Part shown: piece by piece, positions 2,003 to 9,473 of the stretch
How positions within the stretch are numbered: the first letter of the stretch is position 1
Layout of the letters: the number at the start of each line of letters is the position of its first letter
NCBI GenBank assembly: GCA_039091855.1
Contig: JAWCLA010000024.1
Span: 1 to 11,242 of the forward strand
DNA: 11,242 nucleotides
Direction: 5' to 3'
Origin: Candidatus Aenigmatarchaeota archaeon
GTDB lineage: Archaea > Aenigmatarchaeota > Aenigmatarchaeia > QMZP01
Notes under the pieces: generated by a model
Told to the model about the DNA's origin: nothing
What the model saw: only the letters and a program-made list of their open reading frames with translations
Database searches by the model: none
Made by a program: the position numbers and the translations under genes

Positions 2003-2470
2003 TTACTTTACCAAAAGCTTTGCCTTCTCAATGTCGTACTTGAAATCAGCAGGCAAAACCCCACGGGATTTGTAGTATTTCGTAAGCCTGCGGATTTTTG
2101 ACTCCGTGATTTCCAACCCACGCTTTGAAGTGTAATCCTTTTTGTTCTTTTCAAGATGGGCATGAAGGATAACGGCCTTCCTCATAAGGTTGTACATATC
2201 CTCGGGTAAGGGGGGATATAAATTATGCTTTTTCATTATTTTCGCTATTTTTTCCTTTATGTTAAGTTCCTTTACCCTTATTGATGGTATTCCGTACTGG
2301 TCTCTTAGTATAAGCCCTATCTCAGCAGAAGAATGTCCTTTTTTTGCAAGCTTGACTATTATCTCCTCGACTTCCTGTGGCTTGTACCTGTCCTTCAACC
2401 AGGAAGCAGTCTTATGAATTGGCTTTTTGCTTCCAGACTTTCCCTTTTTCCTTGAGTATATTCTTGCCAT
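2003..2470 (-). CDS. rps15: 30S ribosomal protein S15 (uS15, archaeal S15/S13e type)
   Basis: [38 protein letters not shown] and [12 protein letters not shown] motifs. Start moved to ATG 2470, which gives the canonical MAR N-terminus. Confidence 0.97.
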
Positions 2471-2493
2471 AACTCGAATATTGTCCACAAAGA

Positions 2494-2502
2494 TTTAAAT
2501 AT
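2494..2502 (-). promoter_or_regulatory. Putative TATA box for rps15, probably a leaderless or short-leader transcript
   Basis: ATATTTAAA on the minus strand ends 23 nt before the rps15 ATG, with no SD. The same 9-mer occurs upstream of rps17 (7592-7600). Confidence 0.5.
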
Positions 2503-2506
2503 GATA

Positions 2507-2710
2507 TTACGCGATTTCCTGCCTGGTAGCAACGGCAACAGAAATCCAGCACAATCCTGCTATAAGGAAAAGCACAAAGGCTATTATTAGCGCGAGGGCA
2601 TACTGGAATTCAGAAACCCCTATATTAAGTTCCAGGTTCTGGACTATCCAGGTGCCTCCCAGTATAAAAAGTCCTCCCAATATCCATATTAAAACAAGCT
2701 TGGCACTCAT
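2507..2710 (-). CDS. Small hypothetical membrane protein with 2 TM helices (67 aa from ATG 2710; alternative GTG 2719)
   Basis: Two hydrophobic stretches (LVLIWILGGLFILGGTWIV; YALALIIAFVLFLIAGLCWISVAVA). It fills the rpoD-rps15 gap and is co-oriented with both. Confidence 0.75.
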   Translation of the reverse strand: MSAKLVLIWILGGLFILGGTWIVQNLELNIGVSEFQYALALIIAFVLFLIAGLCWISVAVATRQEIA

Positions 2711-2741
2711 ACTCTTCACTTTAAGTTTTCACTTTCTTGAC

Positions 2742-2756
2742 AATCAATATTTGATT
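2742..2756. promoter_or_regulatory. Perfect palindrome AATCAA-N3-TTGATT, possible transcription-factor site
   Basis: Seen directly in the 55-64 bp spacer between rpoD and the small membrane ORF. Confidence 0.3.
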
Positions 2757-2765
2757 TTTTAGAAT

Positions 2766-2774
2766 AAAAAACAA
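2766..2774 (-). terminator. Possible oligo-T archaeal terminator after rpoD
   Basis: TTGTTTTTT immediately follows the rpoD TAA on the minus strand. Confidence 0.4.
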
Positions 2775-3554
2775 TTACTCAGATTTTTTAATCTCCTTTT
2801 TAAAGTCCTCTGCCTTTTTCTCGAGAATCTCTGCAGCCTTTGATATTATATAATCTGGCTTGAGCCCTGAAACAGATTCCACCCTGAATATAATCCTTGT
2901 TTCGTCACCCCTTATCTCTATTCCTTTACAGCCTTCAACACACGCCTTGCAAAGGTCGCACTGCATAGGGTCTGATATCACAGGTTTTCCTGCCTTAAAT
3001 TTTATCAAACCCTTTGGGCATTCTTTCAGGCATTTTTTTGAATCTTTCTCATCCTTAACAACTATCTCAGGATAATACTGGTAATACGCATTTGACGCCT
3101 GCCATTTTGAGTGGTTCTTTCCAATACCCATTATGGCAATTGCCTCGAGTTTAAGTCTTTGTCCGCCAAGAAGCTCAACTATCGGGAAATCAGGGCTTAA
3201 TGGTTTTACATCCTTATTGGAAGATTTCATATCTCCGGAATAAACTATACAAGGTCCTGTCTTGTCAATAACGAAAACAACCTGACACAGAGAGCAACCC
3301 TTTCCATTGCATTTGCACGATTCCTTGAAATTGAATTTTTCAGGATTGAAAGAAAGTGGAATCATTCCCAGCCTGTGAGCTATAAACTCATCAAATAATA
3401 CAGAGCTATTTTCATAAAAATCGACAGTGTCAACAGCCATCGTTGGAACTTCCGAAATCATTATCCTTCTCAAGGCATTTGCAAATGCGGGGGTTGTGCC
3501 CTGAATTACGAAATTCAGCTTATCACCTTTTTTTCCAGCAACACTAATTTTCAT
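2775..3554 (-). CDS. rpoD: DNA-directed RNA polymerase subunit D (Rpo3) with ferredoxin-like Fe-S domain
   Basis: PAFANALRRIMISEVPTMA, LFDEFIAHRLGMIPL, CKCNGKGCSLC, HSKWQ and CLKECP...CDLCKACVEGC motifs. SD GGTGGTGA before the ATG. Confidence 0.97.
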   Translation of the reverse strand: MKISVAGKKGDKLNFVIQGTTPAFANALRRIMISEVPTMAVDTVDFYENSSVLFDEFIAHRLGMIPLSFNPEKFNFKESCKCNGKGCSLCQVVFVIDKTGPCIVYSGDMKSSNKDVKPLSPDFPIVELLGGQRLKLEAIAIMGIGKNHSKWQASNAYYQYYPEIVVKDEKDSKKCLKECPKGLIKFKAGKPVISDPMQCDLCKACVEGCKGIEIRGDETRIIFRVESVSGLKPDYIISKAAEILEKKAEDFKKEIKKSE

Positions 3555-3571
3555 ATCACCACCAATACTAT

Positions 3572-3976
3572 TTATTTTATTTTAAGGCTTTTAATGGAGA
3601 AGTGCCTGTTCATTATTTCCCTGACTGCATTTATGTTTTCACCGTTCTTGCCGATTGCTGAAATTCTTTCCTCCTCAGGAATTGTTAAAGTTATTCTTTT
3701 GTTGCCTGTTTCTATGATTTTTGCAGAAGGAAAAACGCCTCTCAAAAATGCTTCGGGGGTGTCATAATACCCAAAAACCCTTACAGGCCTTCCAAAAACC
3801 TTTCTGAGCTCTCTTATCACTTTGCCGTTTCTTCCTATAACCAAGCCTATTTTTTCTGGACTAACGACAAAGTAGATGCAACCTTCCTTTATAAGGCAGT
3901 CTATAGCGTGAACCTCTGTTATTTTCTCAAAGGCTGCTATCATTCTTATTGAATCATTGCTTAATTTAACGGGCAT
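3572..3976 (-). CDS. nusA: Archaeal NusA (two KH domains)
   Basis: 134 aa with two GxxG loops (IGRNG, AIGKNGENI) and N-terminal FEKITEVHAIDC. It follows rpl30e as in the canonical archaeal order. SD-like GGGGATG. Confidence 0.93.
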   Translation of the reverse strand: MPVKLSNDSIRMIAAFEKITEVHAIDCLIKEGCIYFVVSPEKIGLVIGRNGKVIRELRKVFGRPVRVFGYYDTPEAFLRGVFPSAKIIETGNKRITLTIPEEERISAIGKNGENINAVREIMNRHFSIKSLKIK

Positions 3977-4006
3977 CAGACATCCCCATTTTAGACATAT
4001 CCTTAA

Positions 4007-4036
4007 TATTAGCCATAATTATTAAAGATGCTAATA
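4007..4036 (-). promoter_or_regulatory. Putative internal nusA promoter: TATA-like TTTAATAA flanked by inverted repeat TATTAGC/GCTAATA
   Basis: 61-bp rpl30e-nusA gap, with repeat arms at 4007-4013 and 4030-4036 and the TATA-like element at 4019-4026. Confidence 0.35.
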
Positions 4037-4037
4037 A

Positions 4038-4301
4038 TCACTTTTTTATCCCTACAAGCAGAACGCTGAAAGGCTTTCCGCAAGCCTCGCCGAGTTGCAG
4101 GGAATTTCCTTCGAACTGCCTTATTGATATGAAAAGATTTTTTGCATAGTATTCCAAGTCCTTTCTTATGGTTTCAGGGCAGTTTGATGCGTAAATAACG
4201 CTGTGTATAATCCCTCTTTTGATACCTTTTATAACTGTTCTGCTGCCTATGACGAGCTTTTTTTCCTTTTCAGCCTCTTTTATTTGGTTTAATGATAACA
4301 T
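4038..4301 (-). CDS. rpl30e: 50S ribosomal protein L30e (eL30)
   Basis: KLVIGSRTVIK, IYASNCP and LGEACGKPF motifs; SD AGGTG; adjacent to nusA. Confidence 0.95.
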   Translation of the reverse strand: MLSLNQIKEAEKEKKLVIGSRTVIKGIKRGIIHSVIYASNCPETIRKDLEYYAKNLFISIRQFEGNSLQLGEACGKPFSVLLVGIKK

Positions 4302-4312
4302 TTTTTACACCT

Positions 4313-4699
4313 TTAATAAACATAGCCTATTAGCTTTCCGCCTGTACCTAATTTTATAGCATTTCTCTGGTCCATTATACCTTTTGGTGTGGTCACTATA
4401 AGGATTCCTGTCCCGCTTGCAGGAAGATACCTTTTTTCCCATTTTATGAATTCCTCCTTCCTTACAGAAAACCTCGGCTTTATTGTGCCACATTTGTTTA
4501 TTTTTCCCAAAAGACTTACCTTGAAATTTCCACCCTTTCCATCATCAACAAACTCATAATTCCCTATGTAATTATGACTCTTCAAAACATTGAGAACATC
4601 CTTTATCACCTTCGATGCAGGAACTGTGCACTCCTTTCTGCCTATTGATTCCATATTCTTCAGTATTGAGAACATATCTGCTAAAGGGTCGTGTTTCAT
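4313..4699 (-). CDS. rps8: 30S ribosomal protein S8 (uS8)
   Basis: DPLAD, GKINKCGTIKPRF, WEKRYLPA and GGKLIGYVY motifs. Confidence 0.98.
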   Translation of the reverse strand: MKHDPLADMFSILKNMESIGRKECTVPASKVIKDVLNVLKSHNYIGNYEFVDDGKGGNFKVSLLGKINKCGTIKPRFSVRKEEFIKWEKRYLPASGTGILIVTTPKGIMDQRNAIKLGTGGKLIGYVY

Positions 4700-6638: not shown

Positions 6639-7037
6639 TCAAACAACTAAGCTTGCAATCTTTCCGACAAGCGGAAACCTCTCTACAGCCTCTTTTGCAA
6701 CAGGTCCTTTTATAAGCGTGCCTTTTGGTTCTCCCTTTTCATTAACTATTACTGCTGCATTGTCCTCAAACGATATCCACATACCATTAGGCCTCCTGTA
6801 TTCCTTTTTCTGCCTTATTATAACAGCCTTGAATACCTCATGTCTTACCTTTTCATTCCCTTTGAAAACCCTGCATGTTACAAAGCTTCCAACACCTGCA
6901 TTTGCCCTTGTCCTGTGTTTGCCCTTGAATCCCATTACAGATATTATTTGAAGCTCCTTTGCGCCGCTGTTGTCAGCACATATGACTACAGATCCTATTT
7001 GAAGAGGCTTTGTAACCTTTGCGCTTATTGCTTTCAT
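6639..7037 (-). CDS. rpl14: 50S ribosomal protein L14 (uL14)
   Basis: CADNSGAK, FEDNAAVIV and IKGPVAKEA motifs. SD GGAGTGA lies 6 nt before ATG 7037. Confidence 0.98.
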   Translation of the reverse strand: MKAISAKVTKPLQIGSVVICADNSGAKELQIISVMGFKGKHRTRANAGVGSFVTCRVFKGNEKVRHEVFKAVIIRQKKEYRRPNGMWISFEDNAAVIVNEKGEPKGTLIKGPVAKEAVERFPLVGKIASLVV

Positions 7038-7043
7038 AAACAA

Positions 7044-7451
7044 TCACTCCTTTTCAGAGGAGGAATGTGCTTTTGGCTTTTTCTCCTTAACAGATTTTTT
7101 AAAATCCTTTTCAAAGCCAACAACAACACTGTGCTTTGTTTTTGAAAGAGGTCTGCATTCAGCCACAATCACGCTGTCACCTTCCCTGGCTCTTATGCAC
7201 GGTGGATTATGGGCAGTTATCCTTGATTTTTGCCTCTGGTATCTTTCATATTTAGGAATAAACCTGTGATAGCCCCACTCAACTATTACTGTGTTGTGGG
7301 ATTTGTCCGACCTGACAACGCCCCTGAAAACCCTTCCCCTTATGCTCAGTTTTCCGTGCCAAGGACATTTTGCGTCATTGCACTTCTTTTCAGGCGGTTT
7401 TATAGGTATTCCTATATTCCCCGCTTCTTTCACTTTCGATTTTTTTGACAT
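7044..7451 (-). CDS. rps17: 30S ribosomal protein S17 (uS17, archaeal type)
   Basis: CNDAKCPWHG, PKYERY, AHNPPC and ECRPLSKTK motifs, plus a Lys-rich C-terminal tail. Confidence 0.98.
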   Translation of the reverse strand: MSKKSKVKEAGNIGIPIKPPEKKCNDAKCPWHGKLSIRGRVFRGVVRSDKSHNTVIVEWGYHRFIPKYERYQRQKSRITAHNPPCIRAREGDSVIVAECRPLSKTKHSVVVGFEKDFKKSVKEKKPKAHSSSEKE

Positions 7452-7584
7452 ATATAATCACTAACTCCTAAAAACAGGCTCTCAAAAAACCTTTTGAGAA
7501 GCCTCTCTACTGGTTGCAAAAGAAAGCAGCTAAAACCCCGCTTTACACAGCCAGTAACTCAGCTTACCCTAATCATTTGGTAAG
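7452..7584 (-). promoter_or_regulatory. Structured non-coding leader of rps17 (three consecutive stem-loops, then a U-tract and SD-like motifs)
   Basis: Inverted repeats at 7563-7584, 7508-7556 and 7476-7504, then GTTTTT and AGGAG/GTGAT before the ATG. Function is inferred. Confidence 0.55.
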
Positions 7585-7589
7585 ATGGC

Positions 7590-7600
7590 TTTTTAAATAT
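7590..7600 (-). promoter_or_regulatory. Putative TATA box of an internal promoter for the rps17-rps8 block
   Basis: ATATTTAAAAA preceded by purine-rich ACAAGGTAAT (BRE-like), in the only large gap of the operon. Confidence 0.55.
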
Positions 7601-7623
7601 ATTACCTTGTTCCAAATCAGTAA

Positions 7624-7899
7624 CTACCATTTCTTGAACTTTTTCTTTACCCTGTCTTCTGGTCTGGAAACAAGAAGGCTTCCGTCAACCCTTACCCATT
7701 TTCCGTTAACAAGGAAAGAAAAAACGCAAATATCCTTAGGGACAGATTTTTCTCCGCTTTTTGTTTCAATGACAAGCATATTCCTGCTCTCTCCAACAAC
7801 CTTTCCCTCTATTCCAACAAGATGCGAATTTTTTGAGTTTGCTACCTTTGCTAACAGGCCTATAAGCTCGTGCCTTACAATCTCTTCGGGAGTTGCCAT
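7624..7899 (-). CDS. rnp1: Ribonuclease P protein component 1 (Rpp29/POP4)
   Basis: HELIGL, GIEGKVVGESRNML, VPKD and RPEDR motifs; canonical position between SUI1 and rps17. ATG 7899 with upstream GAGGG is preferred over TTG 7923. Confidence 0.95.
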   Translation of the reverse strand: MATPEEIVRHELIGLLAKVANSKNSHLVGIEGKVVGESRNMLVIETKSGEKSVPKDICVFSFLVNGKWVRVDGSLLVSRPEDRVKKKFKKW

Positions 7900-7936
7900 A
7901 ATATAAAAACCCTCTTCAACCAAATACTGCAGCCTT

Positions 7937-8242
7937 CTATGAAACCTCTATCTTTTCCTCAGGAAAGCCGAGCTTCACAAGTATTGCCTTCACCTTTTCT
8001 GTGTGGTTTCCCTGCAACTCTATCACGCCTTCCTTTATGGTTCCTCCGCAGGCAAGCCTTGTCTTCAACTCCTTAAGAACGTTCTTTATGTCAACGTCCT
8101 TGCTTATGCCCTCAATCACTGTTGTTATCTTTCCGTACCTTTTTTTTATCCCAGAAACTCTTATCTTCTCGCTCTCCTTTGCTATTGTCTCGCAAACACA
8201 TAGTTCCTTCGGCAGGCCGCAGTTAGGACAGACTTCGCTCAT
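7937..8242 (-). CDS. Translation initiation factor SUI1/aIF1
   Basis: CPNCGLPKELCVCE, RYGKITTVIEG, LACGGT and IELQGNH motifs; ATGA overlap with rpl29. Confidence 0.97.
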   Translation of the reverse strand: MSEVCPNCGLPKELCVCETIAKESEKIRVSGIKKRYGKITTVIEGISKDVDIKNVLKELKTRLACGGTIKEGVIELQGNHTEKVKAILVKLGFPEEKIEVS

Positions 8243-8485: not shown

Positions 8486-9244
8486 TTAATTTTTCGATTC
8501 AGCCTTTTTAACCTTTTTCTTCTTTTGTTCGTCCTTTTCTGTTATTTCAGTTTTAATGGGTTTTTCTTTATGAACAGCCTCTTCATTTTTCTCAGCCTCT
8601 TTTTCAAGCTCTTCCAAAATCTCTTCACCTTTTTGCTCAATTTCGGTTTTTTCAGGTCTTGTTGTCTTGAGCTCACCATCAATATCCATAAAATACTTCA
8701 TTATCTTTACCTTCACGCCTATCTTTCCTGGTTTTGTGTTTGCCTCTTCAAAACCATAGTCAACAAGCTCTTTTGATGGCTGTCCGCAATGTTTAAGGTA
8801 ACCTTCTGTAAACTTTGATGTCATAGCCTTTCCTGTTCCAAACTTTCCTGAAATTATTATTTCAGCACCAACAGCGCCCGCGTCCATTATCCTCTTTATC
8901 ATAACATTTCCTATCTTCTTGTAATTGAATCCCTTTTCCAGAGAGGATGCAATATGTTTCGCTACCAGTTTGGCATCTAAGTCTGGATTCCTTATCATTT
9001 TAACATCAAGTTGTGGGTTTTCCAACCCAAACTTCTGCTTTATAGCCTCTGTCATTTCATTTATTGTCCTACCACTTCTTCCTATTATCCTTCCAGGTTT
9101 GTTTGTGTATATTATTATCTTTATCCCGAGAGGCGTCCTTTGAAGCTCTATCTTTGAATAGTCTCCAGAAGGAAAGCTTTCCCTTATGAATTTCTCTATT
9201 TCCATCTCCTTTATTGCATGACCGATGAAGTATCTCTTAAGCAT
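8486..9244 (-). CDS. rps3: 30S ribosomal protein S3 (uS3) with long charged C-terminal tail
   Basis: RTPLG, KH loop PGRIIGRSG, GAEIIISGK and GKIGVKVKIM motifs. Confidence 0.98.
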   Translation of the reverse strand: MLKRYFIGHAIKEMEIEKFIRESFPSGDYSKIELQRTPLGIKIIIYTNKPGRIIGRSGRTINEMTEAIKQKFGLENPQLDVKMIRNPDLDAKLVAKHIASSLEKGFNYKKIGNVMIKRIMDAGAVGAEIIISGKFGTGKAMTSKFTEGYLKHCGQPSKELVDYGFEEANTKPGKIGVKVKIMKYFMDIDGELKTTRPEKTEIEQKGEEILEELEKEAEKNEEAVHKEKPIKTEITEKDEQKKKKVKKAESKN

Positions 9245-9473
9245 ATCTAATCCCTACTGGCCATATTAACTCCCCGCTTTTTTCCTTATCCCTTATTTCA
9301 AGCCTTTTCATAACAGGGCTTCTTAAAAACCTTTCAGGTAATTTTTCAGAATCAACATCCTCAATAATAAAGATGCTCTCCCCGTCCGTATCGTAATCTT
9401 TCTTAAGGACATTCGAAAGGTATTTCGCTATCCTTAGGCTCCCCCTTCCACAAATATAAATATCCACTTTCAT
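9237..9473 (-). CDS. Hypothetical 78-aa protein inserted between rpl22 and rps3
   Basis: Its ATG is 1 nt after the rpl22 TGA (GGAGAGATGATATG), and its TAA overlaps the rps3 start (ATGCTTAA). It fills the whole 230-nt gap. No family recognised. Confidence 0.8.
   Translation of the reverse strand: MKVDIYICGRGSLRIAKYLSNVLKKDYDTDGESIFIIEDVDSEKLPERFLRSPVMKRLEIRDKEKSGELIWPVGIRYA

Follow-up and report, generated by a model that had tools for sequence, protein, structure and literature searches.

The 172 nt spacer between rpp29 and rps17 in the window (the whole stretch of 11,242 nt that was analysed, contig JAWCLA010000024.1 of a Candidatus Aenigmatarchaeota archaeon, assembly GCA_039091855.1) contains a structured RNA element that belongs to an uncatalogued RNA family, and this family is confined to one family of the Aenigmatarchaeota. 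On balance the spacer appears to combine the promoter of an spc-like operon with a ribosomal-protein leader, which a protein encoded in the operon would bind and so lower translation; this reading is based on the sequence and on its comparison with relatives. A cis-regulatory RNA ahead of the rps17-rps8 block had been proposed in a preliminary description of this DNA, made from its letters alone. That proposal stood in so far as the element is structured, conserved, covarying, located on the mRNA strand and present as a single copy; the part of it concerning a terminator was not conserved.

The genome bearing the window amounts to 689 kb in 38 contigs and is 84% complete. The open reading frame list and Pfam matches gave a minus-strand order of L23, L2, S19, L22, a 78-aa ORF, S3, L29, SUI1/aIF1 and Rpp29 and, after the gap of 172 nt, S17, L14, L24, S4e, L5, S14 and S8; beyond S8 follow an L7Ae/L30e-family gene, a KH-domain protein, RpoD and S15. 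The long gap ahead of rps17 (7452-7623) on which the preliminary description had remarked is real, and the remaining junctions from rpl23 to rps8, which it had called short, are all ≤14 nt or overlapping in the ORF list. A wide rpp29-rps17 spacer is the rule across the order, with 77-1234 nt separating the genes in the 24 loci that had both among the rps17 loci of 30 genomes. The features of the window that bear on the spacer are listed in Table 1.

Table 1. Location and basis of features in and around the rpp29-rps17 spacer; positions are those of the window.
Feature	Position	Strand	Basis and remarks
rpp29 (RNase P protein subunit p29), gene 5' of the spacer	7624..7923	-	Pfam PF01868, E 1.1e-24
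H1, inverted repeat CTTACC-N10-GGTAAG	7563..7584	-	In sequence; outside the conserved RNA
TATA-like box TTTAAAAA	7590..7597	-	Sequence
Predicted transcription start	7565..7567	-	Inferred from TATA position; predicted 5' UTR ∼116 nt
5' invariant block GCUGAGUUAC	7554..7563	-	Alignment A1; start of covariance-model match 7498-7568
P2 (= H2), covarying hairpin, 49 nt	7508..7556	-	Covariance-model pairs; expanded relative to relatives
3' invariant block GUAGAGAGGC	7501..7510	-	UAGAGAGGC invariant in 18/18 genomes; 5' strand of P3 in most relatives
P3 (= H3), GGCU-U-CUCAAAA / UUUUGAG-AGCC	7476..7504	-	Predicted folds; helix of relatives lies here in another register
GUUUUU run past P3	7470..7475	-	Sequence; not conserved as terminator
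AGGAG	7465..7469	-	Sequence, SD-like
AGUUAGUGAUU, containing SD-like GUGAU (7457-7461)	7456..7466	-	Predicted partner of 7549-7559 (AGUUACUGGCU), forming a local P1
rps17 ATG	7449..7451	-	Sequence
rps17 (uS17), leading the block S17-L14-L24-S4e-L5-S14-S8	7044..7451	-	Pfam PF00366, E 1.3e-22, and neighbours

Two other aspects of the gene order were recorded. The 78-aa ORF (9237-9473, minus strand) was without a Pfam match and is packed between rpl22 and rps3, starting 1 nt past the end of rpl22 and overlapping the start of rps3 by 8 nt; a relative was found in one of 30 other genomes searched (G004; 39% identity, E 1.5e-9), where it is located ∼2 kb upstream of rps17. In the region 2003-4699 (minus strand) the usual L6-L32e-L19e-L18-S5-L30-L15 run is absent after rps8, and in its place are the L7Ae/L30e-family gene (4038-4301), the KH-domain (NusA-like) gene, rpoD, a 70-aa hydrophobic ORF (2507-2719) and rps15. 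From its context, preceding the KH-domain gene, the L7Ae-family gene looks like rpl30e.

No significant match was obtained by BLASTN of the spacer against 60 relatives, those of the genus included (best E 0.0014, short pieces), and the family was recognised by reading syntenic rpp29-rps17 spacers. A common motif, composed of GCUGAGUUAC, a hairpin and GUAGAGAGGC, was present in 11 of the 30 spacers read. The exact pattern GAGTTA-N15-45-TAGAGAGGC was run on all 91 genomes of the order and gave 20 matches in 19 genomes, 18 of which were directly upstream of rps17 and on its strand; the two matches without a nearby rps17 were taken as chance, and the reversed control pattern matched five times in the same 91 genomes. 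Family f1 accounted for all 18 rps17-linked matches, which were spread over 10 of its 27 genera, and as the motif is missing from the other 17 genera the element is dispensable.

A covariance model of the core only (R1; 55 positions, 11 pairs) gave matches in 7 of the 151 genomes sampled from the class, each with one match and each belonging to f1, and in 14 of 41 sampled genomes of the family at E<1e-6. One further true member, G031, gave a weak double match to R1; it carries an insert of ∼90 nt in P2, has both invariant blocks intact and is located directly upstream of rps17. Of the 114 stretches returned by a metagenome scan, 80 were fetched: rps17 was downstream in 20 of these, two had rpp29 upstream and a contig end before rps17 was reached, and the 58 in which neither gene was present were taken as chance. 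The 18 genomes and 22 metagenome contigs together gave 40 sequences, or 31 distinct sequences after the removal of nine duplicates, with G031 as an extra. In all 29 of 29 sequences the ATG of rps17 was 24-165 nt past the core. The element was always on the sense strand of rps17 and occurred once per genome, directly upstream of a ribosomal-protein gene and operon and on the same strand, as in a leader. The many copies per genome that a dispersed repeat would give were not observed, each genome having one strong match to the model. The alternative of a MITE-like repeat, raised in the preliminary description, was likewise not borne out in the window's own genome, in which BLASTN detected only chance matches of 14-19 nt elsewhere.

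The comparison of rpp29-rps17 spacers from relatives, suggested in the preliminary description, revealed a conserved structure with covariation, and P2 is clearly a real helix. In a model-fitted alignment of 19 rows, which includes the chance match L083, both sides were changed in 9 of the 11 model pairs, and there were 37 doubly changed cells compared with 13.0±3.1 in shuffles. Paired cells made up 87.3%, compared with 32-45% when the partners were slid by one to three columns, and the covariation score was reached by none of 500 shuffles. By these measures P2 gives the leader a conserved secondary structure with covariation support. The changes from G-C to G-U in P2 place the RNA on the rps17 (mRNA) strand, and the suggestion that G-U pairs mark the minus strand holds, P2 having both G-U pairs and compensatory changes. 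P2 ranges from ∼20 to ∼90 nt in length and is ∼25-35 nt in most relatives and 49 nt in the window.

The nucleotides flanking P2 were the most constant part of the element in alignment A1, in which G, C and GAGUUA of the 5' block and UAGAGAGGC of the 3' block were invariant in 18 of 18 genomes; this amounts to ∼17 invariant nucleotides in the family, situated at the junction. The three hairpins of the window (H1-H2-H3) had been described as one RNA unit. H2 and H3 do belong to the conserved RNA and H1 lies outside it; the conserved unit consists of two invariant blocks of 10 nt around H2, and P1 and P3 are variable.

P3 and P1 could not be aligned across subgroups with MAFFT (alignment A3), therefore both helices were tested in each sequence against shuffles rather than by column counts. 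P3 is formed by the invariant GGUAGAGAGG with varying partners, such as UCUCUCUACU, UUUCUCUACC and GCUUUCUGCUU, and had z<-2 in 11 of 29 sequences. P1, in which the 5' block pairs with a strand 3' of P3, was recognisable in ∼20 of 29 sequences, the duplexes being judged by eye, and had z<-2 in 11 of 29; among the P1 duplexes listed, most end ≤25 nt from the ATG. In G006 a U-A pair of P1 is exchanged for C-G, by U-to-C in the 5' block and A-to-G in the partner. Support for P1 and P3 extends to about two thirds of the sequences, and both helices are heterogeneous.

The two blocks can also be zipped onto each other, with GCU-GAG-UUACC facing GGUAG-AGA-GGC so that three purine-purine oppositions (G·A, A·G, G·A) lie between U·G pairs; the outer pair of this form was AU in 10 sequences, GU in five, UA in one and unpaired in three. 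With nearest-neighbour energies the zipped form was the minimum free energy (MFE) structure in only 3 of 29 sequences and had a median of 5.2 kcal/mol above the MFE. Because the zipped form is energetically worse, a three-way junction of P1, P2 and P3 was taken as the main fold. Predicted exposure of the SD sequence showed no consistent difference between the alternative folds, and a switch between the zipped form and the three-way junction, rejected because the former is rarely the MFE and SD exposure is inconsistent, is kept as a minor possibility. The purine-purine oppositions of the zipped blocks, and the three-way junction in most members, bear a likeness to the K-turns and k-junctions that are sites for the L7Ae family. 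In a K-turn a C helix and an NC helix are separated by a 3 nt bulge, next to which come tandem sheared G·A pairs. As a site for L7Ae or eL30 a K-turn was rejected: the blocks could form tandem G·A pairs, but their internal loop is a symmetric 3 by 3 one that has no bulge, and the zipped form is rarely the MFE.

A TATA-like octamer was located 25-73 nt upstream of GAGUUA in 29 of the 31 distinct sequences. The distance was 25-30 nt in the genus of the window, and in other genera the promoter was up to ∼50 nt further upstream. The centre of an archaeal TATA box is usually ∼26 nt upstream of the transcription start, and the start predicted for the window's genus is 3-6 nt ahead of the 5' block. 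Five public sequencing runs, from two studies, contain the stretch, and none is on record as RNA. The predicted start is preceded by the 5' arm of H1 (7584-7579), which would therefore be outside the transcript. H1 was also not seen in the other 30 distinct sequences, and its inclusion in the leader RNA by the preliminary description was not upheld. By a rough estimate ∼0.4 perfect 6 bp inverted repeats with a short loop are expected per 172 nt; H1 was treated as chance or as promoter-proximal DNA.

The remaining landmarks of the window's copy were as previously described: inspection of the sequence placed H1, H2, H3, the U-run, the SD-like sites and the TATA-like box at the positions claimed, and all three hairpins were recovered by RNAfold of the minus strand. 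Comparison with shuffles on both strands gave a more modest result. The minus strand folded at -48.1 kcal/mol (z -2.6; 2 of 200 shuffles folded at least as well) and the plus strand at -35.2 kcal/mol (z -3.4); folding energy is suggestive but weak, and alone does not choose the strand. The strand and the significance of the leader RNA are taken instead from the comparative data, where a motif kept before rps17 in relatives contains the counterparts of H2 (as P2) and of H3 (as P3).

The window's copy is a divergent member of the family, as its P3 (H3) uses GGCU...AGCC and not AGAGAG; in the test against shuffles its P3 had z -0.15, and the helix is in another register here. A local P1 of 11 bp is predicted to pair 7549-7559 with 7456-7466 and is found in both the MFE and the centroid structures of the predicted transcript. 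It competes with the base of P2, with predicted pair probabilities of ∼0.78 for the local P1 and ∼0.18 for the P2 base, and when shortened the local P1 did not outperform shuffles (z +0.5). The GUUUUU run beyond P3 could be a weak partner of AGAGA or could be an oligo-U termination signal.

The undescribed status that the preliminary description had assigned to the element agrees with the outcome of searches of known families and of the literature. With cmscan, the window gave no match to Rfam 15 at E up to 10, and the best scores within 7000-8000 were 14-20 bits against thresholds of 45-100; the C/D-box family RF01651 (15.4 bits, E 8.4) was discarded as too weak. The loci of eight relatives, searched against Rfam 15 at E up to 1, gave one irrelevant match (E 0.73). 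The element thus does not belong to any family of Rfam 15, among them the archaeal S15, eL15 and L4 leaders, riboswitches and C/D sRNAs. A full-text literature search covering archaeal ribosomal protein leaders, S17 and spc autoregulation found no description of the element, and a targeted literature search found no cis-regulatory RNA described for DPANN archaea.

Resemblance to the rRNA site of the bound protein is common, though not obligatory, in ribosomal-protein leaders. The window's own genome is without an assembled 16S and has a partial 23S, and comparisons were made with genomes of the same genus and family, using their 16S and 23S. R1 matched the 16S and 23S of relatives with at best 7.7 bits (E ∼1), and motif scans of same-genus 16S and 23S gave only matches with two mismatches. 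A comparison of H2 with the 16S sites for uS8 and uS17 had been suggested; helix 21, the uS8 site, of same-genus 16S was unlike the motif, and no convincing look-alike was found. Two likenesses were noted in the 16S 5' domain. The sequence GCUCAGUAAC before helix 7 has two mismatches to the 10 nt 5' block, and helix 12 contains an exact AGAGAGG which spans a GAGA tetraloop and the 3' strand, while in the leader it is a helix strand. Both are in another structural context and at the level of chance; their joint occurrence is weakly unusual by a rough estimate and could be chance. These likenesses would allow a more far-reaching proposal, that DPANN here have their first described RNA regulator that senses a protein, with blocks mimicking the closing strands of the 5' domain of 16S (GCUCAGUAAC ahead of helix 7 and GAGAGAGG of helix 12), such that uS17 or eS4, finding no nascent 16S, would bind the leader and shut off the spc-like operon, and with the different fold of sister genera as an independent solution; as a whole this proposal is unlikely to hold.

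The rRNA genes of relatives were themselves far longer than the Rfam models. In G003:C42 (L088, L091) and G021 (L089, L094) the 16S matches spanned 1902 and 3148 nt and the 23S matches 4419 and >6000 nt, and the 16S alignment contained inserts of 62, 38 and 48 nt.

Feedback of the type proposed here has precedents outside the DPANN. In Escherichia coli the spc operon is controlled by uS8, which binds a site at the start of rplE that mimics 16S helix 21, and rps17 is part of the S10 operon. The E. coli system would be a functional analogue, being feedback through mRNA structure on an overlapping set of genes (L14, L24, L5, S14 and S8); the present element differs in preceding rps17 and in having no likeness to helix 21 of same-genus 16S. 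In Methanococcus, uL1 represses translation of the L1-L10-L12 operon through a structured site near the mRNA start, which closely mimics the 23S site. This is an archaeal parallel, with a protein acting on a structured site near the mRNA start, although such mimicry was not found for the rps17 leader.

Four archaeal leaders, S15-Halobacteria, S15-Methanomicrobia, eL15-Euryarchaeota and L4-Archaeoglobi, were presented by Eckert and Weinberg (2020; PMC7247131), for whom four archaeal motifs represented a significant increase; the main text of that paper makes no mention of S17. The element described here resembles those leaders, as they appear in that main text, in being a conserved, covarying 5' UTR structure of a narrow archaeal lineage whose ligand is inferred from gene context. 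It differs from them in gene (rps17 and the spc-like block), lineage (DPANN), sequence and fold.

The reading of the element as a ribosomal-protein leader follows from its position, which is always before rps17 and 24-165 nt from the start codon, from its single copy and from the invariant nucleotides of its junction. In the mechanism that we propose, the promoter in the spacer would drive rps17-rpl14-rpl24-rps4e-rpl5-rps14-rps8, giving an mRNA with a predicted 5' leader of ∼116 nt. The core of the family is GCUGAGUUAC, P2 and GUAGAGAGGC, and in most members the two blocks also pair with variable downstream strands, to produce a three-way junction of P1, P2 and P3 whose closing helix, P1, ends near the ribosome-binding site. 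Under a shortage of free rRNA, one of the RNA-binding proteins of the operon would bind the invariant junction and stabilise the fold beside the SD sequence, or over it in the case of the window's copy, so that the operon would be translated less. The candidate ligand is uS17, encoded by the nearest gene, and other candidates are uS8 and two further RNA binders with genes downstream, uL24 and eS4.

The element may alternatively act at the 5' terminus as a stability or processing element, or represent a separate small RNA of ∼95 nt that ends at the U-run, in either case without feedback. Folds at the 5' terminus protect mRNAs in bacteria, and the start predicted 3-6 nt before the first block within the genus would place the fold at the very 5' end; the neighbouring rpp29, a gene for an RNase P subunit, would suit a role in processing. 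A plain stabiliser, however, needs no 17 invariant nucleotides, the promoter in other genera is up to ∼50 nt further upstream, and most members are without a terminator between the element and rps17. This explanation is considered unlikely.

A riboswitch-like role, in which the element would sense a small molecule or ion with the invariant junction as ligand pocket and so tune ribosomal-protein output, is rather improbable. The three-way junction, its ∼17 invariant nucleotides, the variable outer helices and the variable P2 are aptamer-like, and the failure to find rRNA mimicry with R1 in 16S and 23S is consistent with such a sensor. Against this, the sole associated gene is rps17 with its operon, in all 18 genome sequences and in 20 of the 22 from metagenomes (in the remaining two the contig stops before rps17), no Rfam riboswitch was matched by the window or by the loci of eight relatives, and a distribution restricted to one family is more typical of a ribosomal-protein leader.

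An attenuator or terminator, in which H3 and the U-run would halt RNA polymerase before rps17 and the upstream structure would modulate this, is quite doubtful. Archaeal polymerases terminate at oligo-U, and the window has a 12 bp hairpin (7504-7476) followed directly by GUUUUU. Poly-U stretches are also reported 3' of archaeal S15 leaders in the main text of Eckert and Weinberg (2020; PMC7247131). In the family, however, a run of at least five U after the core was read in only 3 of the 31 distinct sequences, two of these runs being in or beside P3, and the U/C-rich strand of relatives is the pairing partner of the invariant AGAGAG. The H3 hairpin with its U-run was not flagged by a terminator scan. 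The terminator that the preliminary description had offered as an alternative therefore fails as a general feature; attenuation is unlikely in the family as a whole and could act in the window's species. That the hairpins are chance folds, or copied from a dispersed repeat or mini-intron cassette, agrees with the modest z-scores and with the blank BLASTN even within the genus, but is highly improbable given a single copy in the window's genome, one model match per genome, a position and invariant blocks kept in 31 distinct sequences with a covarying P2, and an H2 without a 3-nt/4-bp/3-nt bulge-helix-bulge.

Other arrangements were observed at the same junction. A second type of leader, an unrelated fold of 100-170 nt, precedes rps17 in five genomes of f1 and f3 (L039:1863-1964(-), L044:1873-1973(-), L045:1348-1476(+), L057:1829-1928(-) and L051, ∼490 nt before rps17). 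It has a 5' strand CAGUUAUUAGAAC and a GGAACAUGGCUG block, lies behind a TATA box and, in four of the five, 16-48 nt ahead of rps17. The CAGUUAUUAGAAC strand can pair either with an internal AUGGCUG, with one exchange of A-U to G-C, or with a 3' GUUCUAAUAACUG. Type 2 had no match in Rfam, and its exact pattern was detected in 3 of 371 genomes of the class. The 548 nt spacer of L051 (G011) begins like type 2 and continues with ∼5 tandem units ending like GUUUCCGUNACAGNUUGCAAGGCGAG. In five loci of family f2 (L042, L049, L052, L054 and L056) the last ∼70 nt before rps17 contain a conserved inverted repeat, UAAUCCAA ... UUGGAUUA, which brackets a TATA-like TTTAAATA ending ∼24 nt before the ATG. 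Such an arrangement points to a palindromic DNA operator and a leaderless rps17 mRNA, and not to an RNA leader. R1 run with filters off against 19 rps17 loci without the pattern found nothing (best E 0.38), therefore the type 2 and f2 spacers are not divergent members of the family described here. Such diversity at a single junction agrees with a regulated operon start and is typical of ribosomal-protein leaders.

To our knowledge very few cis-regulatory RNAs are known in Archaea. The archaea in question have genomes of <1 Mb and are thought to be host-dependent. The 31 distinct sequences, with 17 invariant nucleotides and a covarying stem, define a compact RNA for protein-binding and structural work, and sister genera, with another fold at this position, allow alternative solutions to be compared in nature. 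If the element is indeed a dedicated RNA regulator of the spc-like operon, archaea with tiny genomes would have kept feedback control of ribosome synthesis.
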